From Anolis carolinensis (Eukaryota): 64,000 nt of DNA. The position numbers and the translations under genes were made by a program. Positions 14,008-60,764 of the stretch are shown here, one piece after another (the stretch's first letter is position 1; the number at the start of each line of letters is the position of its first letter). The stretch spans positions 8,981,802 through 9,045,801 of the forward strand of contig NW_026943825.1 in the NCBI RefSeq assembly GCF_035594765.1, written 5' to 3'. The notes beneath the pieces are model-generated. The model saw nothing but the letters and a program-made list of their open reading frames with translations, was not told the DNA's origin and made no database searches.

Positions 14008-14064
14008 CTGGAAGGGGTTTCCGGGGTCTCCCTCGAAGGGGTTTCCCTCTCCGCTCCGGGCCAT
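14008..14064 (-). CDS. SCAMP3: SCAMP3 coding exon 1
   Basis: ATG at 14064; MARSGEGNPFEGDPGNPFQ with two NPF motifs; CAG|GTCAGA donor; GC-rich context. Confidence 0.92.
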
Positions 14065-14300
14065 GCCAGCCTGCGCCCACTCCTCTCGCTGGCTTCTGCT
14101 GCCTCTACGGCTGCTGGGATCCTCGCCTCTGATTGGCTGCCGGGGCCCTGCGCGTCATCAGAGGATGGGGTGGGGATTCCCAGGGGGCGGGGCTTTGCCT
14201 TCCCCGCGCTGGCCGACGGGAATTGGAGTCCCCAAGGCCATCGGAAAGGGGAGGGGATCTCTCTGTGCATGCTGGGAATTGTAGTCTCTTGTACTCCCTC
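14065..14300 (-). promoter_or_regulatory. SCAMP3 CpG-rich promoter/5'UTR with CCAAT, CRE-like half site, GC box and ZNF143-type motif
   Basis: ATTGG near 14132, CGTCA near 14154, GGGGCGGGGC near 14184, and GACTACAATTCCCAGCATGCAC on the minus strand at about 14265-14286. Confidence 0.7.
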
Positions 14301-14567
14301 CCTTTTTCCCCAGCTTGAGCTGGGCTGTGTTTACCTCTGTTTGAAGCCCAATAGCTCTCATGTCTTCTCTGGTTTCGGAGTGCAGGCGAGCTGCCAGTGT
14401 AGACTCATGGAGCACTTAACCTGCATTCTGAATCTGGATTGTGTGGCCTTTGTGAACTGGCACCCATGGGGATTGGTAACATATCTCTATCTCTATCTTT
14501 GCACATAATCTATAGACATATCTTCTATATCTATGCATATCGATATCTTCTATCTATACACATAATA

Positions 14568-14602
<35 letters not shown>

Positions 14603-15639
14603 CACATATGTATATGTGTGCATATACATGTGTATATACACACAATATAATTTACAATAATATATAATAACTAGCTGTGCCCGGCCACGCGTTGCTGTGG
14701 CGAAGTCTGGTGGTATGAGAAATAAAGTATTGAGGAATTGATGGTAGTTAAGGTCAAGGATAAACGTTTTCTCATGACATTAAGTCCAATTGTGTCCGAC
14801 AGCACACAGAAGTGGATTATTTGGTAGTGTGGAGTCAAGATAATCCAGTTCAAAGCAGATAATATAAGATTATAAATGGGTTATATAGCTGTGTGGAAGG
14901 GCCTTGAGTCTACACTGCCATATAATCCAGTTCAAATCTGATAATCTGTATTTTATAGGCAGTGGGGAAGAGGCCTAAGTGAGGCCTAACTCTGCCTGTC
15001 CCCTGGGCTGAGTGGGTTGCTAGGAGACCCAAGTGGGTGGAGCTTAGCCTTTTAACTGGCAGCGATTGGATAAAAACAATTATTCCTCTCCCTCTAATTA
15101 GGACTTTTTTCTTTTCTTTTTGTTGTATGAACGCAGAGGCATGGATGAGGGGTTGTGCTGCCAAGTTTAGTGTTTCTGGGGTGTGCAGTTTTGTTGTTTT
15201 GTCCTAGGCCAAAATTTCATTACCCTTTTATATACCCAATATAGATTATATTGTATATACATATAATATTCATAATAATACTAATAACACAATGTAATAA
15301 TATTACTTATATACAGTAGAGTCTCACTTATCCAAGCCTCGCTTATCCAACATTCTGGATTATCCAACACATTTTTGTAGTCAATGTATTCAATATATCA
15401 TGATATTTTGGTGCTAAATTCATAAATACAGTAATTGCTACATAGCATTACTGCGTATTGAACTACTTTTTCTACCAAATTTGTTGTCTAACATAATGTT
15501 TTGGTGCTTAATTTGTAAAAATCATAACCTAATTTGATGTTTAATAGGCTTTTCCTTAATGCCTCCTTATTATCCAACATATTCGCTTATCCAATGTTCT
15601 GCCGGCCCATTTATGTTGGATAAGTGAGACTCTACTGTA

Positions 15640-16530
15640 TATCTTTATTAAGGATTTTACATTATAAAAAATAAAATAAAAATAAAAAAGAAATGCAAAT
15701 CACCATATTTCGCAGCGAAAGTGGGGGAACACTTCTTTATAGGTAGAAAGTAGGAAGCAAGAAGAAAGAGAAAAGAAATATATATGTATACACGTACATA
15801 CCCATACCCATCTAAACCTATATGTAAATCCAAAAAAGAAAAGGATTAAAAAAATTAAAAACAAAAGAGGAAAAATACTACTACTAATAATAATAATAAA
15901 ATTAATGGGGAAAAAAGGAAAAAATAGATTGTAGACTTCCATCTGTCTTTTACTGGTTCTTCATAATCTTTTCCAAGAAAAATCATACTTATTGGTAAAA
16001 CGCCATGTCCCTTCGTCCTCCTTAATCTCCAAGGTTGTGTCGGTTCAGCAGATAAGATCAAACTTCTGTTTTAAATATTCCTTTACCCGGTCCCAGTTCA
16101 TTTCTTTCTTTGGTAAACCTTGATTCGGGGATAACCAATAAGTAAGGCTATCCATATTCATTATCTCTATGACTCTGTTTAGCCAATCCTCCTTTTTTGG
16201 AATCTCCTTTTGTCTCCAAATCCTAGCATATGTTATCCTTGCGGCTGTAATCAAAGAATTGAACAGAATCTCTTTATTCTTGTCGTCATCAATAAAAAGT
16301 ATTCAGGTTCCCTGTGAATCTTTATCTTAAGAATTGAGTGTATAGCTTCATTTTTGTTGTTCCAGAATGACTGGGCGTTTGAGCAAGTCCACCACATATG
16401 GCAGAAATTCCCCGTCTGGTATTCGCACTTCCAACATTTATTAGAAGAATTTTTGTAACATTGAGAAATTTTATAGGGGGTAATATACCACCTGTATTGC
16501 ATTTTTAGCCAGTTCTCTCGCAAATTGTAT
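15640..16530 (-). mobile_element. Degenerate L1-like 3' fragment
   Basis: CWKC...FCHMWWTC cysteine motif, TAARITYARIW, frameshifted; T-rich 3'UTR. Confidence 0.65.
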
Positions 16531-17375
16531 AAATATTATTGCGCCAAATTGCTATATGTGTGTGTGTAAAGAAATCCTTGCAAAGATGTTTGCAGGAGAT
16601 CTCTGCAAAAGAGCTCAGCTTTGCAGAGAGATAAGCCACGCCTAAAACAACAATGTATCTGTTTGCTGGCAGATGGCTGGTTTTGTCAGTTGGAATTTGA
16701 GCTTGGAGGGAGAGCACAGAAAAGACAGGCTCTCTAATAGTTACGGTCAAGTAGCAGTTTAAATATGCTATGCTGGATATATTTTGAATGCTGATTGATT
16801 AGTTATTGATCCTATGCAACTACAAGGACATTGTATGATTGCTGAACTGTTTATTTAACTTCAACTCAACAAGTAAAGTTTCCTTTTGTTCTTTCAATTC
16901 CTCTGCCTGGTCTGAGTCTTTTGCACATGGTGTTAACTGGACGCTGCTGATTCCGCTGTACACTCGGAGGTAATATACCACGTGTATTGCATTTTTAGCC
17001 AGTTCTCTCGCAAATCGTATGAATATGTGTATCTGAGGCCCTGGGCTGTGTTTACCTCTGTTTGAAGCCCAATAGCTCTCATGTCTTCTCTGGTTTCGGA
17101 GTGCAGGCGAGCTGCCAGTGTAGACTCATGGAATCAAAGCATTTAACCTGCATTCTGAATCTGGATTGTGTGGCCTTTGTGAACTGGCACCCATGGGGAT
17201 TGGTACCATATCTCTATCTCTATCTTTGCACATAATCTATAGACATATCTTCTATATCTATGCATATTGATATCTTCTATCTATATACATAATAATAATA
17301 ATAATAATAATAATGATAATAATAATAATAAATACACATATGTATATGTGTGTATATACATGTGTATATATTATA

Positions 17376-21996: not shown

Positions 21997-22583
21997 AATT
22001 TATCTATACACATCTAAAGCCATCTGTGTGTACGTGTCATGGGTGTCCGTAATGATTCATAATGAAGTGCAGTCATTAAAGACAAAAGAAACACAAACTT
22101 TATGTAGCACGCCTTTAGTATGTATTATAAAACCAGCTTTGCGGATGCAGGATTAGTTCTGGGATTTTCTACCCCATCCCCAGCTCCTTGTCTAGGTCTT
22201 TGGCTTCCAGACTTTTGGCCGTTTTGCCGGACACTTTCCATCTTGTCCATCTCTTGTGTTGTATTTTGCTGCCCAGAAGTGGACACAAGGTTATTATTCC
22301 AGGTGAGGTCTCTCCAAAGAGTGGGACTGCAATTCCCTTCCGTCTCTAGATACTATATTCCTATTGATGCAGCCTAGAATCGCATTGGCCTTTTGAGCTG
22401 CAGCATCACAGTGTTAGCTCACGTTTGGTTTGTGGTCCACTAAGACTTCTAAATCCCTTTCACAACCAAGGCCGGCTGAAGGTCATCGGTGACCGCTTGG
22501 CCAGTTGAACTTGACCATCACTACACCGGAAAATTGTTGTTTTGTTCCGCGATTAGAGACGTTTGTATCTGATGGTGGATCTT

Positions 22584-22790
22584 TCACATGACGGGGCATT
22601 GCACCGGCCGCTTGAGGGACTCCACCGCGCTCTCGGCCGTGACCCTCAAGGAACTGAAATCTAGGCCGGACCAGGCGGAGAAGATGGAGCCGCCCTCCGA
22701 GGGGTCCTTCGGCTTCACGATTGCCAGGAGGTCCCGGGGGAGTTTGGCCTTTCCTCCGGCCGCTTCCAGTTGCTTCCTGTCCGTCCGGTT
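22584..22790 (-). CDS. Complexin-3/4-like gene, last coding exon (CAAX C-terminus)
   Basis: ctcttgctttccctgcacag acceptor; NRTDRKQLEAAGGKAKLPRDLLAIVKPKDPSEGGSIFSAWSGLDFSSLRVTAESAVESLKRPVQCPVM*; aligns by eye to CPLX3 [25 protein letters not shown]...KCHVM; 207 bp, phase 0. Confidence 0.9.
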   Translation of the reverse strand, partial: NRTDRKQLEAAGGKAKLPRDLLAIVKPKDPSEGGSIFSAWSGLDFSSLRVTAESAVESLKRPVQCPVM

Positions 22791-23510
22791 CTGTGCAGGG
22801 AAAGCAAGAGGAAGCAGGACGGAATTAACGTTGTGTCATTTGGTCTCACAATACATCCCTATAAGTCAGCAGCTAATCCTTTCTATCTATATACATCAGT
22901 CTTGTGGTTGTGTTTGAGCATTGCATATATACATCCCTAAAGACCAGTAGCTAATCCTTTCTATTTATATACTGCCCTCTTGTGGTCACATCTGGGCACT
23001 GCATACATACATCCCTATAGGTCAGTAGCTATAGGTCCATTCAACTTGAGATTTCCTTTTCCCATTTCGTAACACTCTGCATTTCGCCTGGGATCTACGA
23101 ATTAGTCTCCTGTTTTTAACACTGTATCCTGCTTGTTGATTTTAATGATTGTTTTTATTGATGTTGATTTTTTTTACTGGGATAATTGTTTTATTGCTTT
23201 GTTACTGTTATTTGTTTGTTTTATCGGGCCTGGCCCCATGTAAGCCGCCCCAAGTCCCTTCGGGGAGATGGGGCGGGGTATAAAAATAAAGTTATTATTA
23301 TTATTATTATAGGCCAGCAACTAAACCTATCTATGTATATAATGCCCTCTTGTGGCTGTATTGCAGTGCTGCATACTTAAATACCGACAGGCCAGTAGCT
23401 AATCCTTTCTATCAATACACTGCCCTCCTGAGTTTGCATCTGAGCACTGCATACATACATGCCTATACCAATATAAAGCAGTAGCGAATTCTTTCTGTCT
23501 ACATACTCCC

Positions 23511-24310
23511 CTCTTGTGGTTGCATCTGTACACTGCGTACATACATCCCTATAGGTCAGTAGCTAATCCTTTCTATCTTCTTGCTGCCCTCTTGTGGTTG
23601 CATCTGTACACTGCGTACATACATCCATATAGGTCAGTAGCTAATCCTTTCTATCTACATGCTGCCCTCTTGTGGTTGCATCTGTACACTGCGTACATAC
23701 ATCCCTATAGGTCAGTAGCTAATCCTTTCTATCTACATGCTGCCCTCTTGTGGTTGCATCTGTACACTGCGTACATACATCCCTATAGGTCAGTACCTAA
23801 TCCTTTCTATCTCCATGTTGCCTTCTTGTGGTTGCATCTGTACACTGCGTACATACATCCCTATAGGTCAGTGTCTAATCCTTTCTATCTCCATGCTGCC
23901 TTCTTGTGGTTGCATCTGTACACTGCATACATACATCCCTATAGGTCAGTAGCTAATCCTTTCTATCTTCATGCTGCCCTCTTGTGGTTGCATCTGTACA
24001 CTGCGTACATACATCCCTATAGGTCAGTAGCTAATCCTTTCTATCTGCATACTCCCGTCTTGTGGTTGCATCTATACACTGCATACATACATCCCTATAG
24101 GTCAGTAGCTAATCCTTTCTATCTCCATGCTGCCTTCTTGTGGTTGCATCTGTACACTGCGTACATACATCTCTATAGGTCAGTAGCTAATCCTTTCTAT
24201 CTGCATACTCACCTCTTGTGGTTGCATCTGTACACTGCGTACATACATCCCTATAGCTAAGTAGCTAATCCTTTCTATCTCCATGCTGCCCTCTTGTGGT
24301 TGCATCTGAA
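23511..24310. repeat. 78-bp minisatellite, about 10 near-identical units with degenerate flanking units (22850-24560)
   Basis: Unit CTCTTGTGGTTGCATCTGTACACTGCGTACATACATCCCTATAGGTCAGTAGCTAATCCTTTCTATCTCCATGCTGCC; seen as a 26-aa periodicity in the ORF track. Confidence 0.95.
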
Positions 24311-24661
24311 CAATGCATACATAACTAGAGACCAGCAGCTAAACCTATATATGTATATAATGCCCTCTTGTGGCTGTTTATGAGCGCTGCATGCATACAT
24401 ACTAATAGGCCCGTAACTAATCCTTTCTAGCCATGCACTGCCCTCTTGTGTTTATATCTGAGCACTGCATACAGACATACCTATATAGACCAATATCTTT
24501 ATGCTGCCCTCTTGTGGTGGCTTCTGAGTACTGCATACCTATACACCAATCGCTAACCCTACTTATATATTGTCGTTTTACAAACCAAACAAACCAACCA
24601 ACCAACAAACAATTATCTTTTGATTTTATATCTATCGTCCATGGGGAGAAGGGAGTCCCAC

Positions 24662-24749
24662 CTTGGGCAGCTGATATTTCTCCCGGAGGTGAGCCCTCAT
24701 GGAGGCACGCTCCGCTTTCCGTTGCGCAAAGGCCGACTCCCGTTTGGTC
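24662..24749 (-). CDS. Complexin-3/4-like gene, central-helix exon
   Basis: ttgcag acceptor, AAG|GTGGGA donor; 88 bp; TKRESAFAQRKAERASMRAHLREKYQLPK versus CPLX3 [29 protein letters not shown]. Confidence 0.93.
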
Positions 24750-25156
24750 CTGCAATCCGGAGGTAAGAACCGTGTGTTGGACATGAGACACGTCTGGGAT
24801 ATACATGTTCCAACCCATCAAGCCATGATGGGGCCAGGATGTAATCATCGTACGATGAGATATTCATTGAAAAGCTATAGCCAAATGTTTCCAGGCAGGA
24901 AACAATCAGGGCCAGCTAACTCCTCCCAACAAAGGATTCCCCCAGGCAGGAAGCAGCCAGGCTTTGCAGCTGCAAGGCTATTCCATGCTAATCAAGGTGG
25001 CCAATGGCAATGTATTTATGAATTTAGCATGAAAACATTGCAACATTTACTACAAAAACAATGATTACTAAAAGGCAGACTGCCTTGGATAATACAAAAC
25101 CTTGGATAAGTGAAGCTGGGATAAGTGAGACTCTACTGTGTGTATGTGTGTGTGTG

Positions 25157-25211
<55 letters not shown>

Positions 25212-25670
25212 TAGCTGTGCCCGGCCATGCGTTGCTGTGGCGAAGTCTGGTGGTATGGGAAATAAAAGTATTGAGGAATTGGTGGTAATTAAGGTCAAGG
25301 GTAAAGGTTTTCCCCTGACATTAAGTCCATTATAAATGGGTTACATAGCTGTGTGGAAGGGCCTTGAGTCTATACTGCCATATAATCCAGTGCAAATTAG
25401 ATAATCTGTGGAAGAGGCCTAAGTGAGGCCTAACTCTGTCTGTCCCCTGGGCTGAGTGGGTTGCTAGGAGACCAAGTGGGCGGAGCTTAGCCTTCTAACT
25501 GGCAGCAATTGGATAAAAACAATTATTCCTCTCCCTGTAATTAGGACTTGATTTTTCTTTTCCTTTTTGTTGTATCAACCTAGAGGTGTGGATGATGGGT
25601 TGTGTTGTCAAATTTTGAGGTTGGAGGGCCTGTAGTTTTGTTGTTTTGTCTGCTGCCCTGATGCCATCAC

Positions 25671-25722
<52 letters not shown>

Positions 25723-26470
25723 TAGCTGTGCCCGGCCACGCGTTGCTGTGGCAAAGTGGTGGTGGTATTGGTTAAAAATTGTTGTATATTTTTTATTTGA
25801 CGTTATTTGCATTTTTAAATTAATTTTATTGTAAGTTATATTTTTATTTATTATATTTTATTATTTTCTTTTAGTTATTTTCTGTTATTATAGCATTTTA
25901 TTGTATTAATTTTTTAGAGTTTTTTATTATTTTTTATTGGGTTGCTAGGAGACCAAGTTGGAGGAGCTTAGCCTTCTATCTGGCAGCAATTGGATAAAAG
26001 CAATTATTCCTCTCTCTCTAATTAGGACTTTATTTTTGTTTTCTTTTTGTTGTATCAACCTAGAGGCATGGATGATGGGTTGTGTTGTCAAATTTCGAGG
26101 TTGGGGGGCCTGTAGTTTTGTTGTTTTGTGGGTTGCCGTGATGCCATCACTCTTTTATATATATAGATATACACACACACACACACTCCTTGCCCAGTTT
26201 TCAACAGACCTCACAACCTCTGAGGATGCCTGCCATAGATGTGGGCAAAACATCAGGAGAGAATGCTTCTGGAACATGGCCAGACAGCCCGGAAAACTCA
26301 CAGCAACCCTGTAAAGAAGTGTTTTGCTCACCCTCATCTTAATAGCCTCTGACCCACATTTTCAAAACCAAAATCAAGGGTCTCATACGACTGCTTCTGG
26401 GACCCCTCATCTTAGTATGTTGTGATCCTCTGATCGGCATGTTCAAAACCAAAAACCGACACTTTCTTAC

Positions 26471-26610
26471 TGTTGCTTCTGGGATCCCTGGGACGTTCGG
26501 TTGCGGCTCAAGAATCCCGGAGCGTCGGTCTCCCTCTCCTTGGGGACGTCCTTTGAGATGCAGCACATCAGTTGCCTGGCAGGAGCGCCCAGTTTAACTG
26601 CAGATCCCAT
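26471..26610 (-). CDS. Complexin-3/4-like gene, first coding exon
   Basis: ATG at 26610, 2 nt after a cttcttccag acceptor; MGSAVKLGAPARQLMCCISKDVPKERETDAPGFLSRNRTSQGSQKQ plus CA|GTAAGA donor; the phase-2 end joins the next exon in frame. Confidence 0.8.
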
Positions 26611-26792
26611 GACTGGAAGAAGGCTGGAACACACAACGTGCAAGGATACGAAAGGCAACAGAACAAAAATATAATAGCATCCCTCCAAAATGATTTGAAA
26701 TACTTGACTTGTCAGGCTTTTCCCCCGAGGAATCAGCCACAACCGGAGCCCGTGGCACAAGACTGGGACTGTTTTCCTTCCCGCGAACTCAC

Positions 26793-26850
26793 CTGTGTGG
26801 GAACCTTTGTGTTTTCGGCCTCGGCTCCCTTCGAATGTCCCGGAAGGATG
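26793..26850 (-). other. Probable 5' non-coding exon of the complexin-like gene (5' boundary approximate)
   Basis: Consensus donor CAG|GTGAGT at 26793/26792 pairs with the acceptor at 26613-26614 (180-bp intron); splicing gives gtcATGG Kozak context; TTTAAA TATA-like element near 26875. Confidence 0.55.
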
Positions 26851-27030
26851 AGAGCTCTAGTTGTCTCAAGGTCTTTAAAGAAAGATCTGGAGCAGCGCAG
26901 TCTCAGGCTTTCCTTGATCCCGACGGGTGACAGCTGGGTGGGTGGTGTCTCATGACAGGGATGATGGCCACCTGTCCGTCATCGGGACGTGCCGATCACC
27001 TGAGACACACTGCCCCACTTGGAACTAGAG

Positions 27031-34087: not shown

Positions 34088-34276
34088 TCACCGGCTGATG
34101 TCCCGGCTGGCGTCCCAGGGCTTGGGTCCCGGGGGGTGCGGGGGCTTGAGGGGGTCAAAGAAGGGGTGCTTCAAGGCCTCGGCCAGGGTCAGGCGCTTGG
34201 AGGGCTCGTACTCCAGCATTCCCTCAATCAGGTCGAAGAGCTGGTGGTGCTCCTCTGCTTCCGACGCCAGGTATCT
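34088..34276 (-). CDS. CLK2: CLK2 last coding exon 13
   Basis: [40 protein letters not shown]...WDASRDISR*; the CLK2-type C-terminus; exon lengths sum to 1506 nt (501 aa plus stop). Confidence 0.96.
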
Positions 34277-38573: not shown

Positions 38574-38617
<44 letters not shown>

Positions 38618-39451: not shown

Positions 39452-39560
39452 CTGCAAAGATACAGAAGAGGGGGAAACTATTAGTTCGCTTTTAGAATTT
39501 AGAATTGAACGGAAGTTGATGAACACATCTAATAATAATAATAATGGCCTTATTTGTATT

Positions 39561-40248: not shown

Positions 40249-40636
40249 GTATTTATACTTTATTTATATTTATATTCATCTATTATTTATTTACTTACTT
40301 TTATGTATTTATATGGAAGTTGAGAACACATCTAATAATAATAATAATAAAGATAGCCTTATTTATACTTATACTTATTTATAATGTATTTATTTTTACT
40401 TACTGTATATACCCGATTATAAGTCTAGTTTTTCAGCCCTTTTTTTAAGACTGAAAAAGCCCCCCCCCCCCCCCCCCCGGCTTATACTTGGGTGAGGATC
40501 CTGGTTGGCTTATATTCGGGTCAGCTTATACTCGAGAATATATGGTACATTTATTTTTTTCTCTATTATTATTGGCATTATTACATTTATTATTTTTCTC
40601 TATTATTGTTGGTACTTTTACATTTATTTTACTCAA

Positions 40637-40677
<41 letters not shown>

Positions 40678-41738
40678 ACATTTATTATTTCAATCTGATC
40701 TTATTATTATTATTGCATTTATTACTTTACTCTAATATTACATGTATTATTTTCCTGTATTATTATTTATTATTATTACATTTATTATTTTACTCTATTA
40801 TTATTAAAAAGATGCATAAGCAAATTTACATTGAAGAAGATGAGAATAATGATTTGATCAGAGTTGGACAATCTTATCTTAAATTTGAGCTTGATGTAAA
40901 TATTCAAAAACATTTAACCTACTGATGCCTCAATTAATGTAATTTTATTGGTATCTATTTTTATTTCTGAAATTTATTACCCTCGGCTTATACTGGAGTC
41001 AATGTTTTCCCAGTTTTTTGTGTTAAAATTAGGTGCCTCGGCTTATATTCCGGTCGGCTTATACTTGAGTATATACGGTATATTCATTTATTATGTACTT
41101 TTATGTATTTATATTTATGGGGCCCCTGGTGGCACAGTGTGTTAAAGCGCTGAGCTGCTGAACTTGCGGACTAAAAGGTCCCAGGTTCAAATCCCGGGAG
41201 CCGAATGAGCACCCACTGTTAGCCCCAGTTCCTGCCAACCTAGCAGTTCGAAAACATGCCAATGTGAGTAGACCAATAGGAAGGTAATGGCGCTCCATGC
41301 AGTCATGCTGGCCACATGACCTGGAGATGCCTGTGGACAACGCCGGCTCTTCAGCTCAGAAATGGAGATGAGCACCAACCCAGAGTCGGTCACGACTGGA
41401 CTTAACATCAGGGGAAACCTTACCTTTTATTTACATTTGAGAACACATCTAATAATAATAATAATAGCCTTATTTATACTTATATTTATTTATAATTTAC
41501 TTATTTTTACTTATATTTATATTTATTTATTTATTTACTCATATTTATTTATATTTATACGGAAGTTGATGAACACATCTAATAATAACGATAACAACAA
41601 CAATATTAATAGTAATTTATATTTATATTATTAGCATAGCATAATATTCAATATTCTATTCAACCCATCATTTGCCATTGATGCACCTCTTCTTGGCCCC
41701 CATGAACGCACCCGGTCTTGCCCACTCCGAATACTCAC

Positions 41739-41905
41739 ACTTGACAGCCTGGCACACTTGGTAGGCCATGTGCCTGATCTGGTGGAGCGGGTAAGGGAGG
41801 TAGTTGTTGTCCTTCAGGAAGTCAAAGGTGCTGAGCCCCAGGAGCTCAAAGGAAATGCACATGTGGCCGTGGTAGTCAAACCAGTCGTACATCTGGACAC
41901 ACAGG
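41739..41905 (-). CDS. CLK2: CLK2 exon 7
   Basis: [55 protein letters not shown]; 167 bp. Confidence 0.96.
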
Positions 41906-42330
41906 CTGGAGCGGGAAACGGAAAGCAAGACGCAAGTGGGTGAAAAAAGGAAAGCGGATGCACACCGCCTTTGACTGAAGACATTCAGGGAGAGATAGGA
42001 CGAGAAACTGAAAATACAGTAATAAGTATGTGCATGGATTTTGGTATTTCATGTGAAACATTAGTTGCATGGGCCATCTAGTCCAACCGCCTTATGACAG
42101 GTGGGAAAAGCACAATGAAAGCAGCCCTGAAAGATAGCCACGCAGCCTGTTTAAAAGCCTCCAAAGAAGGAGGCACACTCTGATGCTTATAATGTTTTAA
42201 TTGCTGCATGTTTTAACTTGTTGTATGTTTCCTGCTGTGCTGGAAACCGCTCTGAGTCCCTTGGGGAGATAGAGTGGTATATAAATAAATTTTATTTATT
42301 ATTATTATATGATGCAAACCCCACATACTG

Positions 42331-48016: not shown

Positions 48017-48879
48017 ATACTGTATATACTCGAGTATAAGCCTAGTTTTTCAGCCTTTTTTTAGTACTGAAAAAAAAAACCTCCTCGGCTTATACTCGGG
48101 TGAGGGTCCTGATGGGCTTATATTCAGGTCGGCTTATACTCAAGTATATATGGTATATTTATTATTTTTCTCTATTATTGGTATTGTTACAGTAGGGTGT
48201 CTCACTTATCCAACATAAACTGGCCGGCAGAATGTTGGATAAGCGAATATGTTGGATAATAAGGAGGGATTAAGGAAAAGCCTATTAAACATCAAATTAG
48301 GTTATGATTTTATAAATTAAGCACCAAAACATCATGTTATACAACAAATTTGACAGAAAAGTAGTTCAATACACAGTAATGCTATGTAGTAATTACTGTA
48401 TTTACGAATTTAGCACCAAAATATCATGATGTATTGAAAACATTGACTACAAAAATGCGTTGGATAATCCAGAACGTTGGATAAGCGAGTGTTGGATAAG
48501 TGAGACTCTACTGTACATTTATTATTTTTATTATTATTATTACATTTATTATTTTTCTCTATTATCGTTGTTACTTTTACATTAATTTTACTCTATTTTT
48601 ATTATTATTAATACATTTATTATTTTACTCTATTTATTACTACATGTATTATTTTACTGCATTTATTATTATTACATTTATTATTTCAGTCTATTATTAT
48701 TAAAAGGACACACAAGCACATTTACATTGAAGAAGATGAAAATGACTTAATCAGAGTTGAACAGTTAATGTATTCCCAGTTTTTTGTGGTAAAATTAGGT
48801 GCCTCGGCTTATATTCGGGTCGGCGTATACTTGAGTATATACGATAATTACCCCAAGACCCCGGCTGGCAGAACTACTC

Positions 48880-49365
48880 AGACGACACAGAGAAGCCATT
48901 GAAATCCACAAGAAGCATGTGGACAATGTCAACAGAAAGGAAGAAACCATGAAAATGAACACAATCTGGCTCTCAGTATTTAAAAACTCTTAAATCAGGA
49001 CAGTAAATAAAGAACAACACTCAGAAGACAAACAGGAAACAATCAGGGCCAGGTAACACAGCCCAATAAAGGATTCTCCCAGGTAGAAAGCAGCCAGGCT
49101 TTGAACCTGCAAGACAATTCAATGCTAATCAAGGTGATCAACTGCAACATTCACACTTGCCTCCAACAGACAAGAGTTCTTTCTACCATCCTGGACATAA
49201 TTCCATAGATATATACACCCCACTTGCTTAGTTTCCAACAGACCTCACAACCACACAGATGTGAGCAAAATGTCAGAAGAGAATGCTTCTGGAACATGAC
49301 CATACAGCCTGTAAAACTCACAGCAACCCAGTGATTCTGGCCATGAAAGCCTTCCTTTGACAACA
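48880..49365 (+). mobile_element. Penelope-like element remnant (other pieces at about 24890-25020, 26190-26310, 28250-28850, 31900-32160)
   Basis: REAIEIHK..DN.NRKEETMKMN-like GIY-YIG C-terminal remnant followed by the repeated pLTR-like sequence. Confidence 0.6.
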
Positions 49366-49378
49366 CACACATACTCAC

Positions 49379-49495
49379 TTTTTGTTTTCTGGATCTTTCT
49401 CGTTAATCTTCTCGAGGACGTTGATCTCCAGGCGAGCGGCTTCTTTGTACTTTTCCACGTTCTTGATTATTTTGAGAGCCACGCGTGTGTTGCCC
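49379..49495 (-). CDS. CLK2: CLK2 exon 6
   Basis: [38 protein letters not shown]; 117 bp. Confidence 0.96.
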
Positions 49496-49815
49496 CTGCA
49501 GAGTGAAGCAGCAGGAGGAAGCAATTTGAGTATGTATATTTTGTATTATATGGTAATGTTTTTTTAACAAGATGAGGAGAAAAACCTGCATGGCAAGAGG
49601 CTCCTTGGCTTGGAAAAATGAAACAACAGCACCTCCCTATGGCTGAGTCAGGAATAGCCTCCAGATGCCAGAGATGAATAAAAGAGGGAAGCCTTGCCTG
49701 TGTTTATGTACTGTCTATCTTTGTCAATGGTATATCAGCATTGAGTGTTTGCCATATATGTACCTGTAATCCATTCTCAGTACCCTCGGGGAGATAAAGC
49801 GAAATATAAATAAAG

Positions 49816-49860
<45 letters not shown>

Positions 49861-50190
49861 GGAGCCCCCAATGGCGCAGTGTGTTAAAGCGCTGAGCTGC
49901 TGAACTTGTGGACCGAAAGGTCGCAGGTTCAAATCCGGGGAGCGGAGTGAGTGCCCACTGTTAGCCCCAGCTTCTGCCACCCTAGCAGTTCGAAAACATG
50001 CAAATGTGAGTAGATCAATAGGTACTGCTCCTATTGGAGAGAAGGTAATGGCGCTCCATGCAGTCATGCCACATGACCTTGGAGGTGTCTACGGAAAACA
50101 CAGGCTCTTCAGCTTAGAAATAGAGATGAGCACCAACCCCCAGAGTCGGACACGACTGGACTTAATGTCAGGGGAAAATCTTTAACCTTT
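49861..50190 (+). mobile_element. Sauria SINE (other copies at 41121-41428 plus, 37546-37873 minus, 55971-56290 minus)
   Basis: tRNA-like head with A box (TGGCGCAGTG) and B box (GGTTCAAATCC) and BovB-like ACCTTT tail. Confidence 0.8.
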
Positions 50191-50196
50191 ACATCA

Positions 50197-50227
<31 letters not shown>

Positions 50228-50290
50228 TATTATTATTTCAAGGACCCAAGGATCAAGTTCTGCCTCGTAATCAAACCGGGAGTCTCTTAC

Positions 50291-50357
50291 CTGCGGTGAT
50301 CCACGCACTGAACGACCCGTCCGAAAGTGCCTTCTCCAAGAGTACTAATAATCTCAT
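50291..50357 (-). CDS. CLK2: CLK2 exon 5 (Gly-rich loop)
   Basis: EIISTLGEGTFGRVVQCVDHR; 67 bp. Confidence 0.96.
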
Positions 50358-50714
50358 CTAAGAAGAGAGAGAAAGAAAGAGAAAGAGAGAAGGAAGGGGA
50401 AAGAAAGAAGGGAGTATGAGATAGCGAAGAGTCTCCAAACGAAGCATGTAAACACATCACCACAAAGACTTCCTTTGCCAGCTCAAGGAGCCGGCCTCTG
50501 AGCAAGCTAAGAAAAATCCCTCCCTAACGTATCGGCATAAGAAAATAAAAACGGAGGAAGGGGAATCAAAAGGAGCATGTTTAAGAAAAAAAAAGGGGGC
50601 TGCTTCTTTAAAAAAACATAACAAGGGAACAGGAGGGGAAAGCTAAGAGAAAAACGGTGTGACTGCGAGGGGGAGCTTAACTAGAGACTAGATTATGTTA
50701 CGATTTGGCTGTAC

Positions 50715-50808
50715 ATCTTTCTTGGAGCCAGTCGCCGATGCGATAGATGAGGTGGCCTTCGTCGTCGTCTTCCACGCTCTTGGCTCTCCGGCCGCTCGGT
50801 TGACTCTG
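50715..50808 (-). CDS. CLK2: CLK2 exon 4 (cassette exon; NAGNAG alternative start at 50805)
   Basis: QSQPSGRRAKSVEDDDEGHLIYRIGDWLQER; CAGCAG acceptor; weak GAT|GTACAG donor. Confidence 0.92.
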
Positions 50809-51145
50809 CTGCGGGGAGCCCCCCAAAAGCGCAGGCCCGGGTGGCGGAGGGTGGTGGGGAGGAGGGTTTTCGTTTCATGTTTTCATTCATTCATTTCACC
50901 CGCAGCCACGCGTCGCCCAAGGACAAGGTCAGCCCGTGGCGGGTTTGGTGGTGGTGATGGAGGAGGAAGGAGGAAGAGGGACGATTCCCAGGCCAATTCA
51001 TACGGCACAGAGGCGCATATATATGTATAAAAACGATAAGGGATATTGCAAGGGAGAAAAAAAGTCAAGATAACACACACTAGCTCAGGCTTTCTTTATA
51101 GTTATATATTTATGTATGTATAAAAAAATCACTAAATATATATAC

Positions 51146-51549
51146 CCTGTTTCCCCTAAAATAAGACATCCCCAGAAAATAAGACCTAGTAGAGGTTTTG
51201 CTGAATTACTAAATATAAGGCCTCCCCCGAAAGTAAGATCTAACAAAGTTTTTGTTTGGAAGCATGCCTGCCGAACAGAACACCAGAGCATGCAGGATCG
51301 GTAAATAGAGTGTTGTACATGGAAATAATGGCAATTACAAGAAATTCTTGATAGGACTCACAGTTTGTCTGGTTATGCTGGTTTGGGATGACAACTACTG
51401 TACACTATATAATAAATGTTCATTTTTTTTGTTTTTAAATGTGAATTCTTCTTCATGGAAAAATAAGACACCCCCTGAAAATAAGGCCTAGCGCATCTTA
51501 GGGAGCAAAAATTAATATAAGACACTGTCTTATTTTTGGGGAAACACGG
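51146..51549. mobile_element. Tc1/mariner-type MITE
   Basis: Inverted termini CCTGTTTCCCCTAAAATAAGACA / TGTCTTATTTTTGGGGAAACACGG with TA flanks. Confidence 0.65.
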
Positions 51550-53388
51550 TAGATATCCAAGAAGGAAACGGTCATGCGAGAAAACATCCTGCAAACAAGC
51601 AAACCCACCCAAGTCAGCACCAAAAAAGAACAGGGCAGAGGAAACATGGGTCTCACGTCCTAGGATACAAATGCTCCAAGGATATAGAAACTGGGTCCAG
51701 GGGCGGCTGAAGCTCTAAGCTGGGTAAGCAACTGAGTAAGCAACAATGCTGTTTACTTACACTTGACAATTACCTAGAGCCGGCCCTGACTGGGTCACAC
51801 CACTAGAACTAGCTTATAAACCACAGAAAAGGGGAGGACCACCTGAAACACGCACCAGCTTTCAACCCACTCCTCAATAAAACTGTAGAATGAGCTGCTG
51901 GAAGAGATTCGACACCTAAATCAGCACAACTGAAGACCTAGTTGGGCAAATAATCTGAGAGTGTGTTTCCTTGTTGCCAGCCAGCCAGACATTGAGATTT
52001 ATCCTGAAGCCAGCAGGACACCCAGTGAAACTATTTATCCCTCACAAAAAAACCAGAGAAGAGGACAAGACATCTAGGAGCAAATCAAAGAGGACATGGG
52101 ATGCTGCAACTGGGATACAGGGGCGCAACATAGGTGTTATATCCTTCAAAGAAAGCACCCTCTTGGTTTCAGTCGTGAAATTATAACATCAGCTTGTCTA
52201 AAAACCACCCAGGTGATGATCACTTCAGCACCATTTTGCTTGAGCCCCTGACAACAGTTCAAGTAGCTTTTGCAAAAGGGATACGATCAGATCTTAAGAA
52301 CCTCAGCACAATTTGAGCGATATCTCCCAGAATGGAGTCACTTTGCCATATTCAGAGATTGGCTAAAGGAGAAATTAGCCACGATAGCAATACATGAGCT
52401 ACCAGATCAAAGCCACATGGGCTTTCTACTAAGGGATCCAGTTGAATCTGAAACAGGACTTAATGGGCTTCTGGCCCAGACCAGAAAGGGCTCTGCTTAT
52501 GTTCTAAGCAAAACAGGGCCACTAAAAAGGGGTTGATCCAAAATAATAATAATAATAATAATAATAATAATCATTTATTTATACCCCACCTCCATCTCCC
52601 AAAGCGACTCAGGGCAGCTTACAAAGCACTCCAAGGTGCAACACACAAAATACTAAAATAGCAGGAACAATATCGTAAACAAGAACAGCCAGCAAAAGTA
52701 TCACTTCACAACTCCCCCCCCCCCACTTAAAATCAGTAAAATACAGAAATAGCTGATGGTATAAAACAACAACTGTCAATCTCACTCATGTAAAGTTGCT
52801 TGGTGAAATCTATGGGTCCTCACATATATTCATGAGAGACAGCCATTGGATAACCAGCCTCATTACAATTCTATTCTGAAATTTACTATGTCCCTCTTAT
52901 TTGGGTATTTTAATCTAATGATTCTATCTTTATATTGCTTCTGCAGTTCCTCCACCTATGAAGTTTGACTGAATTGTATTGGTGGTTGTTTGACATTATT
53001 ATTTTTGTTTTAACTTTTATTACCTTATTGTGTTTTAACCTGTGTATATTGTGCTAATGTATTTGTGTTGTTACTTTTGTAACAATGTGAGCCGCCCTGA
53101 GTCCCCACGGGGAGATGGTGGCGGGGTATAAAGTTTTATTATTATTATTAATATGAAGGCATCTGAGTATGGTCGAAGGCTTGTTGTGGACAATTCATCA
53201 AAAAGGGATTTCTGTCCAACACAAAAAGACCACGAGGATCAGCAGAACAGAAGCTGGTCCAAAGATGACATTAGTGGTCATCCAAACATCCAAACTACAG
53301 TCGTATTTCCACATGTCAACGTAAGGTGGTCTTTAGGGGCTTGGCAGATGCACCTGACACAAGGTTGTTGCAGCCAGGAAGTACTCAC

Positions 53389-53617
53389 CGATGAAGACTG
53401 GCTAAAGGAGCGGCTGTGACGGCGTCTCCGCCGCCGCTTTCGCCGACTGCTCTTGCAGCTGCGGTAGCTGTCGTCGTGGGAGCGCTGGTACTCATAGGAG
53501 TGGTGGTACTCGGCCTCATAGTAGGCGTCGCCTCGGTCGCGGCTGTAGCCCTCTCGCCGGTAGCCATCACAGTATCGTCGGTCATAAGCCCGTCGATCAG
53601 ATGAGTGGTCATCGTAA
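53389..53617 (-). CDS. CLK2: CLK2 exon 3
   Basis: YDDHSSDRRAYDRRYCDGYRR...HSRSFSQSSS; 229 bp; AG/GT boundaries. Confidence 0.93.
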
Positions 53618-55695
53618 CTGAGCGAAGCCCAGGGAGTGGAGAAGAAATATAATCAGATCCAAGAACGGAGGTAATTTTATTTTAATTACTATATTTACAC
53701 CCCACCCTTCTCACCCCGAAGGGGACTCAGAGTGGCTTACAAATTGGCAACAATTCAACGCAGTATAAACAAACATATAAAAACAATAAGTTTATACCAT
53801 ATATACTCAAGTATAAGCTGAGTTTTTCAGCCCTTTGTTAGGACTGAAAAAGCCCTCCTCAGCTTATACTCAGGTGAGGGTCCTGGTTGGCTTATATTCG
53901 AGTCGGCTTATACTCAAGTATACATGGTACATTTATTATTTTTCTCTATTATTATTAGTATTATTACATTTATTATTTTTCTCTATTATTAGTAGTATTA
54001 TTACATTTATTATTTTATTCTATTTATTTTTATTATTACATGTATTATTTTATGCTATTATTATTGTTTAATTTAATTTACTCTACTTTTATTATTAATA
54101 CATTTCTTATTTCACTGATATTATTACTACATTTATTATTTTACTCCACTTATTATTACATTTATTGGTTTACTGTATTATTATTATTACATTTATTATT
54201 TTACTCTATTACTGTTAAAAGATTACATAAGCCCATTTACATTCAAGAATATGAGAATAACGATTTAATCAGAGTTGGACAGTCTTATCCTAAATTAGAG
54301 TTTTATGTAAATATTCAAAAACATTTAGCCTACTGATGCCTCAATTAATGTAATTCTATTGGTATTTATTTTTATTTCTGAAATTTACTGCTCTCAGATT
54401 ATATTTGGGTCAGTGTTTTTCCCAGTTTTTTTGTGGTAAAATTAGGTGCCTTGGCTTATATCCAGGTCGGCTTATACTCAAGTATATACGGTACATTAAA
54501 CCATTAAAAATTAAGAAAAAACATCTATGCATTAAAAGCAAGGATTAAATACCACACAAAGTCAAAGCCCAGGAGCCATTCCAATCATCAGCTGAATTCA
54601 CCCTGTTGATTTGTGGTTATAGTCTGTTGGACCTTCTAAATCCCAAGGCCTAATGACACAGCTTGCAATGCTTTCATCCTTCTGTAAAGACTATTCTTCT
54701 TTCATAGACACCAACCAGTTACAACTTTTCTCTGGACCATGAGATTGTTATCTATAGGCTGCTGAAGATAGTTCCTTGCACACCTGATGGATCAAGCAAT
54801 ATTACAACAAATATGGTTGGACTTCAGCTCCCAGATGATCAGGAATTCCAGGATCTGTAGTCAAGCCAAGTTTGGATTCTAACCTGGAACTCATTAGGAA
54901 GACAAATCTATATACAGTGTTCCCTCACTACTTCGCGGTTCACTTTTCGCAGATTCGCTGTTTCGCGGTTTTTCAATAAACTCTAAAAGACTATTATAAA
55001 TCATAAAAAATTACAATTTACAGACTAAGGAAGGGAGGAAGGAGAAGCCAAAGGGAGAGAAAAGGAGCCCAAGTGACAACGGGAGGAGAAGGAGGCGATT
55101 TATCAACACACAATTGGTTGATAAAGACTTTTTTTTTAAATAATTTTTATTAAGGATAAAATATGGTCTCTTTTCCATAAAAAGTGGGGGAACATTAAGG
55201 ATATAGGAAAGTGGGAAAGTAAAGAAAAAAATAACAGCGGAGAGAGAGAGAGAGAGGGAGAGAGAGAGAAAAGAGGTTATATATGTCCTTCCATTCTTCA
55301 TGGTAGTCATATTTTCTCTCCTCTTTCCTTACCTAATATGTTTAGTCTTTCTTTAACCTATAGCAGTAGTGATTTATTCAGTCCTGTTTGATTTTAAACT
55401 TAACTATTTGTACTGTTTTTTTACTTCTTCAAGCAGTCCATTTAATTTTGTTGTCTTTCAGCCACTTATAAAGACTTAAAATAGTGTATAACTACTAAAA
55501 TAATGTATAAATATTAAAATAAATATAGCATCCCAACTTTGTGGATTTTCACTTATTGCAGGTGGTCCTGGAACCTAACCTATATTGTACGTACATATGG
55601 TTTGTAAGCCACCCTGAGTCCCCTTCGTGGTGACAAGGGTGGGATATAAATGTCGCTAATAAATAAATAAATAAATAAATACAGTTCTGACTCAC

Positions 55696-55859
55696 CTTCG
55701 CGATCGGACGTGGTAGCTGTCTTCCCTGCGATGTCGGCGCTCGCTGCTGCTCGACCGAGAGCGGCTCCGCCTCCGCTTGTGTTTGCGACTTCTGTAACGC
55801 TCGTAGTAGCTTCCTCGGCTGCTACGTTCCGACGAGCGGAACCTTCTGGAATGAGGCAT
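55696..55859 (-). CDS. CLK2: CLK2 first coding exon (exon 2), RS-rich N-terminus
   Basis: cag|ATG; MPHSRRFRSSERSSRGSYYERYRSRKHKRRRSRS...EDSYHVRSR; GTGAGT donor. Confidence 0.95.
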
Positions 55860-58589: not shown

Positions 58590-59415
58590 TCATCTCTTCC
58601 TTTTTCCTTCCATTTTCCTCAGCATCGTGATCGTTTCCAAGCTTTCCTGTATCCTCATGATGTGGCCAAAATACTTTAACTTTGCCTCTAATATCCTTCC
58701 CTCCAGTGAGCAGCCATTGGGCATTATTTCCTGGAGGATGGACTGGTTGGATCTTCTTGCCAAGGTCCAAGGCACTCTCAGGATTTTCCTCCAGCACCAG
58801 AGTTCAAAAGCGTCTCTCTTCCTTTGCTCAGCCTTCCTTATGGTCCAGCTCTCGCATCCATAGGTGACTATGGGGAATACCATTGCTTTGACTATGCGGA
58901 CCTTCGTTGCCAGTGTGATGTCTCTGCTTTTCAGTATTTTGTCAAGGTTGACCATTGCTCTCCTCCCAAGAAGGAAACGTCTTCTGATTTCCTGGCTGCA
59001 GTCTGCATCTGCAGTGATCTTCGCGCCTAGAAATATAAAGTCTGTCACTGCCTCCACGTTTTCTCCCTCTATTTGCCAGTTGTCAATCGGTCTGGTTGCC
59101 ATGATCTTGGTTTTCTTGACGTTTAACTGCAATCCAGCTTTTGCACTTTCTTCTTCCACCTTGGTGATAAGGCTCCTCAGCTCCTCCTCACTTTCAGCCA
59201 TCAGAGTGGTATCATCTGCATACCTAAGGTTGTTAATGTTTCTTCCAGCAATTTTAACTCCGACCTTGGATTCCTCAAGCCCCGCACGTCACATGATGTG
59301 TTCTGCGTACAAGTTGAATAGGGAGGGTGATAGTATGCACGCCTGCCGCACTCCTTTCCCAATCTTGAACCAGTCTGTTGTTCCGTGGTCTGTTCTTACT
59401 GTGGCTACTTGGTTT
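58590..59415 (-). mobile_element. RTE-BovB LINE fragment
   Basis: GVRQACILSP, NLRYADDTTLMAESEEEL, LNVKKTKIM, YGCESWT, FELWCWR are typical BovB RT/C-terminal motifs. Confidence 0.85.
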
Positions 59416-59428
59416 TGAGACTCTACTG

Positions 59429-60133
59429 CAGGGGTCCTCAAACTTTTAAAGCAGAGGGCCAGTCCACAATCCTTTAGACTGTTGAGGGGCCGAATGATCA
59501 TTTGAAGAAAAAAAATGAACAAATTCCTGTGCACACTGCATATGTCTTATTTGTAGTGCAACAACAACAACGAAAGAACAATACAATATTTAAAAATGAA
59601 AACAATTTTAACCAACATAAACCAATCAGGATTTCAATTGAAAGTGTGGGCCTGCTACTGACCAATGAGATAGTCAAGTTAATTAGGATTGTTGTTGTTG
59701 CGTGCCTTCAAGTCATTTCAGACTTTGGCCAAGCCTAAGTCTAAAATTAATTATTTATTTACTGCATTTATTTACTACATTTATATCTCACCTTTCTCAC
59801 CCCGAAGGGGACTCAGAGCACCTGTATAATACAAGATATTATATTATTAGTATAGCACAATATTAGCATTATATATTACTATATTGAACTATACCATTAA
59901 TTATACTATTATATAATATGTAATATATAACATATAATTAATATTATTACATGGTATTATGATTAGTATTATATTGTATAACATAATATTATTATCAATA
60001 TTATATGTATATACAATATATTATATTATTAAAACTGATATAAAATATTATATTATAAAACTGAGGGCGGGGGCCAGGTAAATGACCTTGGAGGGCCGCA
60101 TCCGGCCCCCGGGCCTTAGTTTGGGGACCTCTG
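59429..60133. mobile_element. Non-autonomous hAT element (same family as 247-958)
   Basis: Same TIRs and interior; 8-bp TSD CTCTACTG/CTCTGCTG. Confidence 0.82.
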
Positions 60134-60149
60134 CTCTGCTGTACTGTAA

Positions 60150-60462
60150 ATAAATAAGGGCGGTGTCGATCCTCCATCAGTAGCTAGGTGGCGCTCCCTC
60201 CCTGCATTCTTATCGGGTCTTCCGCGCATGCGTATGAGAAACACCTATACACGCACTCAGGCGCTGACTCCCTCTCTCCTCCTTTTTTGCCCGCCTCGCG
60301 CCGGTTGGGTCTAGAGCGCATGCGCGGCCCCGCGTGAGGCGGCGCGCGTGGGGCCTGTGCCCTGCCCACGACGCGGCTCTCCATCTCTCTCTGTGTCTCC
60401 TGAGGGGATGCTGAGGGCCGCTGGTTGAGGAGAAGGAGGAGAAGAAAAGGGAGCCCGCCGCC
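60150..60462 (+). promoter_or_regulatory. HCN3 CpG-rich promoter/5'UTR
   Basis: CpG-dense; NRF1-like GCGCATGCG near 60224 and 60315. Confidence 0.6.
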
Positions 60463-60764
60463 ATGGATCCCCTCAGCGGGAAGGCGGCCCTGGACGGCGA
60501 GGCCCCGGGGCGGCCTGGCGGAGGAAGCGGGGCCAGCGTGGCCGAGCAAATCGTGGCCGCCGACCTAGCCTCGGCCGCCGCGGCCGCCGCCGAACCTCTC
60601 CCCCCGGGGGGCACCTTCGTCCAGCGGCAGCTCGGGGCCCTGCTCCAGCCCGCCGTCAACAAGTTCTCGCTCCGGATGTTCGGGAGCCACAAGGCCGTCG
60701 AGATCGAGCAGCAGCGCGTCAAGTCCGCCGGCACCTGGATCATACACCCCTACAGCGACTTCCG
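60463..60764 (+). CDS. HCN3: HCN3 coding exon 1 (hyperpolarization-activated cyclic nucleotide-gated channel)
   Basis: gccgccATGG Kozak; [42 protein letters not shown] is the HCN N-terminal domain; CG|GTGGGC donor; short N-terminus and head-to-head position with CLK2 indicate HCN3. Confidence 0.92.

Follow-up and report, generated by a model that had tools for sequence, protein, structure and literature searches.

A fourth CaaX complexin lineage in jawed vertebrates, likely the genome-duplication sister of CPLX3, at the SCAMP3–CLK2 locus of Anolis carolinensis

Introduction

Complexins are small proteins that govern the release of vesicles at nerve terminals. The described complexins closest to the gene reported here are those of the CaaX subfamily, CPLX3, CPLX4 and cplx4c. 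A review puts the number of complexins in mouse and human at four (PMC4611016), and a survey of zebrafish counts five CPLX3/4 genes (Zanazzi and Matthews 2010, PMC2941751) and describes an 88-nt exon as invariant in CPLX3/4 genes. The chromosomal setting has also been treated: Lamb 2021 (PMC8040251) orders the members of paralogon 7 as HCN1, HCN2, HCN3 and HCN4, with the branching ((A,B),(C,D)), and the term 'cplx' does not appear in its main text or in the part of the supplement examined.

The present study concerns a window of 64,000 nt from Anolis carolinensis, numbered here from its first nucleotide, which carries an intact, spliced complexin gene. The gene belongs to a fourth CaaX lineage that extends across jawed vertebrates. 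On the HCN3 block, it is likely the counterpart of CPLX3 produced by whole-genome duplication (WGD), its WGD sister, and it was apparently lost in mammals. The lineage is absent from both the four-complexin and the five-gene counts. Literature searches found no published description of it, and the supplements of PMC5806438 and PMC12954441 held no matches. Its database labels are 'complexin-3', '-3-like' and '-4-like', which are shared between two different lineages.

Results

The genes of the window are ordered SCAMP3 (−), complexin (−), CLK2 (−) and HCN3 (+), and sequence matches to each gene bear out this order, which had been read from the letters alone in an earlier note. The 5' part of SCAMP3 (1093..14064, minus strand, ATG at 14064) was located by tblastn with records named SCAMP3, the first three exons being 100% identical, and the gene extends past the left edge of the window. 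The coding span of CLK2 (34088..55859, minus strand) runs from an ATG at 55859 to a stop at 34088, and its top PDB match is CLK2 (E 2e-34, against 3e-24 for CLK3). The first coding exon of HCN3 (60463..60764, plus strand) likewise has HCN3 as its top PDB match (E 1e-24). RNA-like contigs place the complexin gene, with four exons and a product of 144 aa, at 22105..26913 on the minus strand; these limits are the contig ends, and the true start and end may be further out.

The 5' untranslated exon of the complexin (26793..26913) is separated by a 169-nt GT-AG intron, spliced out in contigs from two runs, X1 and X10, from the first coding exon (26471..26623, ATG at 26610, 140 coding nt), which specifies an N-terminal QLMCC motif (C16, C17) and then a linker that replaces the acidic accessory helix. 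The 88-nt central-helix exon (24662..24749) encodes the predicted SNARE-binding helix, and the last exon (22105..22790) has 207 coding nt that end in CPVM, a CaaX sequence, and TGA (22586-22584), followed by a 3' UTR with AATACA at 22126. All four exons lie on the minus strand, and the three coding exons (140, 88 and 207 nt), separated by GT-AG introns, give one open frame of 144 aa. The last exon is joined to the middle exon in contigs from all four sequencing runs compared there. In the comparison at the 5' end, two of four runs splice the 5' UTR exon to the first coding exon, and the other two read through the introns and appear DNA-like. The RNA nature of the runs is a guess, no record listing them as RNA, and no tissue is given for the RNA-like lizard runs. 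A plan of three coding exons, the middle one of 88 nt, is that of the CaaX subfamily, and the intron phases equal those of lizard CPLX3 and CPLX4. Since the gene has introns, removed in the spliced contigs, it is not a retrocopy, just as the earlier note had argued.

In a genome scan the middle exon of the complexin matches Pfam Synaphin (PF05835) with 33.6 bits (E 5e-5, cut-off 27), the Anolis sagrei orthologue, 89% identical, matches the same family with 53.4 bits (E 4e-14, cut-off 27), and an ESM Atlas search returned complexin clusters only.

Members of the lineage occur in sharks (three), coelacanth, Polypterus, gars, teleosts, salamander, frogs, turtles, crocodilians, emu, snakes and lizards, and the lineage was already present before the split of sharks and bony fish. 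They form one clade, both in a quick tree of 59 rows (34/34 assigned sequences, SH-aLRT 99) and in a careful, unrooted tree (14/14 members, 100/100), with an inner branching that roughly tracks species groups. The lineage does not nest in the CPLX3 clade, this genome's own CPLX3 being on another contig (C13), and forcing the squamate members together with lizard CPLX3 is rejected (AU p=4e-8). The pattern that would have spoken against antiquity, a gene restricted to the genus and nested in squamate CPLX3 or CPLX4, is therefore not what the range from sharks to emu and the AU test reveal. A recent lizard copy, or a decaying pseudogene, of CPLX3 or CPLX4 would account for the label 'complexin-3-like' and perhaps for an identity to lizard CPLX3 of just 37% over 106 residues, but the open frame, the canonical splicing and the orthologues stand against it, and the trees together with the AU test refute it, leaving its probability practically nil.

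The position of the lineage among its sisters is best seen in the unrooted careful tree, where the split (new+CPLX3)|(CPLX4+4c) is supported at 100/99. This pairing matches the published (HCN3,HCN4) pairing, and the gene is likely the fourth copy from the two rounds of genome duplication (2R). In the same tree the lineage sits neither within nor beside the cplx4c clade, and grouping it with 4c is rejected (p=0.02). Orthology of the lizard complexin to zebrafish cplx4c was ruled out by these results. The earlier note had missed cplx4c as a further sister, which makes the quartet full.

Rooting relied on a single long-branch outgroup sequence, a lizard complexin-1/2-type protein, and the best rooted tree places the lineage outside CPLX3+4+4c at 75/72, with CPLX4+4c still together at 94/99. 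The rooted test rejects neither new+CPLX3 (p=0.34) nor new+CPLX4 (p=0.13). Without the outgroup, the best 31-row tree does not recover CPLX3 as monophyletic, an indication that long branches are in play, and CPLX3 monophyly is not rejected (p=0.14). The outside placement, together with the long stem and distinct chemistry of the lineage, is what would be expected of a paralogue older than 2R, formed as a tandem or segmental copy in the chordate ancestor and surviving on the HCN3 block only, so that CPLX3 would have no 2R sister here. However, the 75/72 support is unstarred and unites two long branches, the rooted test leaves new+CPLX3 standing, and the gene shares its 88-nt exon and intron phases with lizard CPLX3 and CPLX4. 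A set of precisely four lineages that pair as expected, on a block of four chromosomes, offers the simpler account, and a pre-2R origin is considered improbable. Of the proposal that the gene is an ancient sister of CPLX3 and no recent copy, antiquity and a place on the CPLX3 side of the unrooted tree stand; sisterhood is unproven on the rooted tree, and CPLX3 can be called the immediate sister with a fair degree of probability.

The lizard genome has four HCN loci, on contigs C2, C9, C13 and C16, with a SCAMP gene on each and CaaX complexins on C2, C13 and C16. The genome scan gave no complexin match on C9, and no cplx4c gene or relic was found in this genome, including a 140-kb stretch of C9 that surrounds its RAX-type gene, by a search that was not exhaustive. 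C13 and C16 both show the order SCAMP-CPLX-CLK, and on each of them CPLX and CLK are oriented alike. On C13, the CPLX3 contig, HCN4 sits at a distance of about 0.88 Mb and on the side of SCAMP; some 170 kb separate CPLX3 from the CLK paralogue, and the closer of the SCAMP genes has an inverted orientation. The idea that the window keeps an ancestral SCAMP-CPLX-CLK-HCN block is supported by the CLK2 linkage, which zebrafish clone names repeat, with the qualification that the four-gene order is broken on the lizard CPLX3 chromosome. The zebrafish member is named si:ch211-81a5.8, and si:ch211-81a5.7 is given as CLK2-like (PMC2751788); because these clone-based names, on which the fish synteny rests, are adjacent, the complexin–CLK2 linkage is likely more than 400 Myr old. 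Among protein records, linkage to SCAMP3 in other species is drawn from A. sagrei and Sceloporus only, the latter with SCAMP3 (XP_042294855) and the complexin (XP_042294857/8) on one 37.05-Mb contig; a SCAMP3 exon with intron flank, used as a protein-search query, returned two Anolis clusters only.

In Pleurodeles this gene and a 4c-type gene are on equal-sized contigs, about 200 accessions apart, and probably share one chromosome. This would suit a copy of CPLX4 or cplx4c made after 2R and relocated beside CLK2 before the shark divergence, as would the quick 59-row tree, in which the lineage falls beside bird 4c at 84, and the failure of the rooted test to reject new+CPLX4. Such an origin is nonetheless very improbable: new+4c is rejected, CPLX4 and 4c cohere with or without the outgroup, and a chance landing between paralogues of the SCAMP and CLK genes that flank CPLX3 is unlikely.

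The proteins of the lineage are chemically distinct. All 34 members are basic (net charge +3 to +34, median pI 10) and all 22 sister sequences acidic (−3 to −16), and a basic lineage set against three acidic sister branches would likely tune secretion differently. Cys-Cys occurs within the first 30 residues in 22/34 members and in 0/22 sisters, and the EYEEYQ accessory-helix motif in 0/34 and 20/22, respectively. A CaaX end is present in 30 of the 34 (CPVM in the lizard) and is missing from the crocodilian and emu records. The lizard protein has a net charge of +13, a helix starting at residue 44 and, in a low-confidence region, prolines in the linker; no helical acidic accessory helix was found before the central helix in this low-confidence part of the predicted fold. 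The start of the predicted helix lies 6 residues ahead of the first arginine of the central helix, compared with 17 in CPLX3, the control, both folds being low in confidence (mean pLDDT 67 and 64). Amniote members lack the acidic accessory helix and keep the SNARE-binding helix; shark, gar and amphibian members retain a partial accessory helix. This remodelling of the protein itself had been overlooked in the earlier reading of the locus.

Lizard R50, R61, R65, K71 and Y72 align, in a weak match (E 0.3), with complexin-1 R48, R59, R63, K69 and Y70, the SNARE-contact residues of the complexin-1/SNARE structure. All five are invariant or nearly so across 29 members, and the protein is predicted to engage assembled SNARE complexes while anchored in the membrane.

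Discussion

A 2R origin is very likely for this lineage, which would complete a quartet comprising CPLX4 (HCN1 block), cplx4c (HCN2), the present gene (HCN3) and CPLX3 (HCN4). Its apparent loss in mammals, human included, is based on the four-gene count of the review and on negative searches. Recognition of the lineage corrects widespread database labels, and it means that work on the retina of zebrafish, frogs and reptiles has left one complexin out of the count.

The zebrafish gene ranks within the top 50 transcripts of retinal cells other than microglia (PMC6423051, Table 2), and the lineage proteins may, like the CPLX3/4 subfamily, be farnesylated and sit at ribbon-synapse terminals. A gene of the same origin could instead serve regulated exocytosis outside the synapse, for example in egg cortical granules, glia or endocrine cells. 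Fast divergence, reversed charge and loss of the accessory helix would fit such a role, the zebrafish retinal fraction includes Muller glia and progenitors besides photoreceptors (PMC6423051), and a Xenopus laevis record of the lineage is named 'Xoo1 protein', which may, at a guess, denote an oocyte cDNA; searches of the literature for Xoo1 found no paper on the Xenopus protein, and Xanthomonas papers only. However, enrichment in the retina agrees with where CPLX3/4 are known to reside (PMC4611016, PMC2941751), and a non-synaptic role is regarded as rather unlikely.

A mode of action can be proposed with slightly less than even prospects. The C-terminal cysteine of the lizard protein would be farnesylated and the N-terminal Cys-Cys palmitoylated, and the basic surface would bind acidic lipids, so that both ends of the protein might be fixed to the plasma membrane. 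From there the central helix could dock into the syntaxin-synaptobrevin groove. The amniote form, lacking the acidic accessory helix, would be a weak clamp on spontaneous fusion and might act chiefly as a stabiliser, or by competing with other complexins, retinal cells being the probable site. More speculatively, the lineage could be a fifth complexin type of jawed vertebrates, the missing fourth CaaX copy of 2R, rebuilt before sharks as a polybasic protein lipid-anchored at both ends; in amniotes, having shed the clamp helix, it might be a natural anti-clamp with a promoting or competing action at SNARE complexes in the retina (or egg) of non-mammals, discarded in the mammalian line. With its charge reversed and its accessory helix shortened, the lineage lends itself as a natural experiment to a comparison of the disputed clamp models, electrostatic repulsion and helix propagation (PMC4611016).

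Among known systems, complexin-1/2 have central-helix residues that align, in the weak match noted above, and they differ in having no CaaX end, another exon plan and 27% identity over 73 residues. CPLX4, of the LMAN1-CPLX4-RAX block, is alike in exon plan, central helix and CaaX end, but the lizard CPLX4 is 34% identical and maps elsewhere, to 306.0 Mb on C2, with a lectin gene on one side and an OAR homeobox gene on the other. The cplx4c lineage (zebrafish; 'complexin-3-like' of passerines and owl) is likewise an extra non-mammalian CaaX complexin (PMC2941751), but it is a different, acidic clade that groups with CPLX4, Pleurodeles carries both genes, and this lizard genome gave no 4c match. 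CPLX3 (human 15q24; zebrafish cplx3a/3b) resembles the lizard gene in its three coding exons, the 88-nt central-helix exon and its intron phases, a CaaX sequence ending in Met, the SCAMP-CPLX-CLK neighbourhood and a shared side of the unrooted tree. The new lineage has nevertheless been a separate clade since before sharks, at 37% identity in this lizard, and in contrast to the acidic CPLX3 it is basic, with an N-terminal CC and neither the EYEEYQ motif nor the acidic C-terminal run.

Gene order and structure

The proposed gene order of SCAMP3 (−), complexin (−), CLK2 (−) and HCN3 (+) was borne out. SCAMP3 was identified by tblastn; the top PDB hits of CLK2 and of HCN3 were to these proteins, ahead of their paralogues. 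The complexin gene has three coding exons on the reverse strand, of 140 nt (26610–26471), 88 nt (24749–24662) and 207 nt (22790–22584), with GT–AG introns, and a 5′ UTR exon at 26913–26793 (−). Joined, the coding exons specify a protein of 144 aa ending in CPVM. Contigs came from sequencing runs that are guessed to be RNA and carry no tissue label. In four of four runs aligned to the last exon, contigs break at its acceptor and continue at the 3′ end of the middle exon. Of four runs aligned at the first coding exon, two splice out a 169-nt intron to reach the 5′ UTR exon, and the other two are DNA-like through introns. A single contig of 1022 nt (run X10) covers all four exons. These junctions, together with the GT–AG introns, confirm that the gene is not a retrocopy.

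A 78-bp tandem array occupies the last complexin intron (15 copies at 23308–24485 and 2.3 copies at 22851–23031), and LINE-type reverse transcriptase frames lie between SCAMP3 and the complexin (815 codons, 18790–21234, +) and between CLK2 and HCN3 (232 codons, 58593–59546, −). A CLK2 intron carries a Ty3/gypsy LTR retrotransposon (42331–48016, −) with gag-pol in a single unbroken frame of 1623 codons (47645–42777). Since its flanking repeats of ~370 nt are 100% identical except for a 1-nt offset, the insertion is very recent.

Distribution and database records

Using the last exon as query, six lizard proteins were retrieved, and a profile built from these found 55 proteins in one search and 91 representatives in another. 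Top scores on the new-lineage profile, which was built in part from several of them, were obtained by 35 of 82 new representatives, two short fragments being doubtful. Names were looked up for 21 of the 82. Among fishes, there are named members in basking, horn and bamboo sharks, coelacanth, Polypterus, gars and many teleosts; among tetrapods, in Pleurodeles and four frogs, in turtles, alligator and gharial, in emu, and in snakes and lizards, so the gene is not limited to Anolis. It is already annotated, automatically and under misleading names (complexin-3-like, complexin-4-like, complexin-3, CPLX3, uncharacterized, si:ch211-81a5.8, Xoo1).

Neither a mammalian member (the three named mammalian matches in the 55-protein search are CPLX3) nor a bird member beyond emu (other bird matches belong to the cplx4c clade, 4c, or CPLX3) was found, a weak negative, as the first search also missed emu and the second hides members within 50% clusters. 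The human SCAMP3–CLK2 gap is less than 1 kb. Mouse and human have four complexin genes according to a review (PMC4611016).

An old Xenopus laevis record, Xoo1 (P0096, AAA03155.1/Q91915), belongs to the new lineage and departs from it after the central helix, without a CaaX end, a pattern expected from a cDNA frameshift. Alligator, gharial and emu records (P0027, P0029, P0060) also end without CaaX, reflecting gene-model errors or archosaur decay. Otophysan fishes have two divergent forms (P0149/P0134 versus P0079), possibly a teleost-duplication pair, one with a C-terminal-domain deletion. Database errors at the locus (P0163, P0170, P0018 and P0021) include SCAMP3 proteins misnamed CLK2 isoforms (Sceloporus and an older Anolis record) and a turtle member misnamed beta-keratin-related; in addition, one Anolis model omits the first coding exon. 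P0066 and P0071 are predicted lectin (LMAN1L-like)–CPLX3 fusions, probably read-through models of adjoining mammalian genes.

Phylogeny and synteny

In a quick tree of 59 rows, 34 members formed one clade (support 99), in which sharks branch first and the amniotes group with each other. A careful unrooted tree of 31 rows, hand-picked for balance without near-duplicates and fragments, recovered 14 members (100/100), the 4c clade (96/94) and the split of new lineage plus CPLX3 from CPLX4 plus 4c (100/99). Grouping squamate members with the lizard's CPLX3 was rejected (AU test, p = 4e-8) which, with the single clade from sharks onwards, shows an ancient, separate origin and not a recent lizard copy. 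A new lineage plus 4c grouping was also rejected (p = 0.02), and CPLX3 monophyly was not rejected (p = 0.14). The earlier note had made the gene a sister of CPLX3; the unrooted split agrees, but with a single outgroup the best tree places the new lineage outside the rest (75/72), and neither new lineage plus CPLX3 (p = 0.34) nor plus CPLX4 (p = 0.13) is rejected. CPLX3 is the likely immediate sister. Passerine and owl 'complexin-3-like' proteins (P0041, P0043–P0051, P0053, P0055) group with cplx4c, not CPLX3.

The A. carolinensis genome has four HCN genes, on contigs C2 (299.6 Mb), C9 (33.79), C13 (19.96) and C16 (9.04, the window), all of which carry SCAMP genes. CaaX complexin loci are found on C2 (306.0 Mb), C13 (20.85 Mb) and C16. 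That on C2 is flanked by a lectin gene and an OAR homeobox gene, the LMAN1–CPLX4–RAX order of PMC2941751. The C13 order is HCN (−) 19.96, SCAMP (−) 20.70, SCAMP (+) 20.79, CPLX3 (−) 20.84–20.86 and CLK (−) 21.03 Mb, where we infer HCN, the two SCAMP genes and CLK to be HCN4, SCAMP5, SCAMP2 and CLK3. Of the proposed ancestral SCAMP–CPLX–CLK–HCN block, SCAMP–CPLX–CLK is thus common to both loci, but the position of HCN differs. No 4c-type gene was found in this genome, including C9:30.66–30.80 Mb; the lizard seems to lack 4c while having the new lineage, so the members of the quartet that were retained may differ among groups of reptiles and birds. Lamb 2021 (PMC8040251) assigns HCN1, HCN2, HCN3 and HCN4 of paralogon 7 to A–D in that order, branching as ((A,B),(C,D)), and the complexin tree shows the matching pairing.

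Synteny in other species is indirect, from clone-based names, accessions and contig sizes. Consecutive zebrafish clone-based names denote adjoining genes. A cyprinid member bears the zebrafish name si:ch211-81a5.8, and si:ch211-81a5.7 is listed as CLK2-like in PMC2751788. In A. sagrei and Sceloporus, SCAMP3 and the complexin are on contigs of matching size, with near-consecutive accessions in Sceloporus. A zebra finch 4c-type protein (XP_030112759) is 311 accession numbers from HCN2 in Lamb's tree (PMC8040251), a weak hint that 4c is located on the HCN2 block. In Pleurodeles the new-lineage gene and 4c seem to share one chromosome, which counts against separate blocks; a chromosome fusion would explain this.

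Protein features and possible function

The central helix retains R50, R61, R65, K71 and Y72, conserved across 29 members and equivalent to R48, R59, R63, K69 and Y70 of complexin-1 (E 0.3), where these residues are SNARE contacts. Outside this helix, the new lineage is unlike its sisters (CPLX3, CPLX4 and 4c) throughout. Net charge is +3 to +34 in 34/34 members (median pI 10.1) and −3 to −16 in 22/22 sisters, two fragmentary sister rows being left out. CC occurs within the first 30 residues of 22/34 members but 0/22 sisters, whereas the motif E(Y/F)E(E/Q)YQ is found in 20/22 sisters and 0/34 members. A CaaX end is present in 30/34 members and missing from the records of two crocodilians, emu and one catfish. 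In AlphaFold2 models, of low confidence overall, the long helix starts at residue 44, six before R50; the distance to the equivalent arginine is 17 residues in a CPLX3 control modelled at equal depth. Erosion of the accessory helix looks greatest in amniotes, since shark, gar, coelacanth and amphibian members retain it in part.

According to PMC4611016, the complexin central helix binds the syntaxin–synaptobrevin groove, CPLX3/4 are kept at membranes through farnesylation of the CaaX box, and clamping of premature fusion falls to the accessory helix and the C-terminus. By analogy, the new protein may be tethered to membranes by a farnesyl group, probable N-terminal palmitoylation and basic residues; predicted SNARE binding would be retained, and the clamp would be weak in amniotes. 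The zebrafish gene is among the top 50 transcripts depleted in microglia when these are compared with the remaining cells of the retina (log2FC −7.4; PMC6423051, Table 2), a listing that places its expression in the retina without giving the cell type. The Xenopus record name, Xoo1, may hint at a non-neural site.

Altogether, the original observation proved real and its interpretation, a CPLX3 ohnolog lost in human, largely right. No paper setting this lineage apart was found, including the available parts of PMC11613576 and PMC5445133, and closed papers, supplements or gene-tree databases may do so. Fourth ohnologs that mammals have lost are a familiar type of result; the reversal of charge and the lost clamp helix go beyond this.
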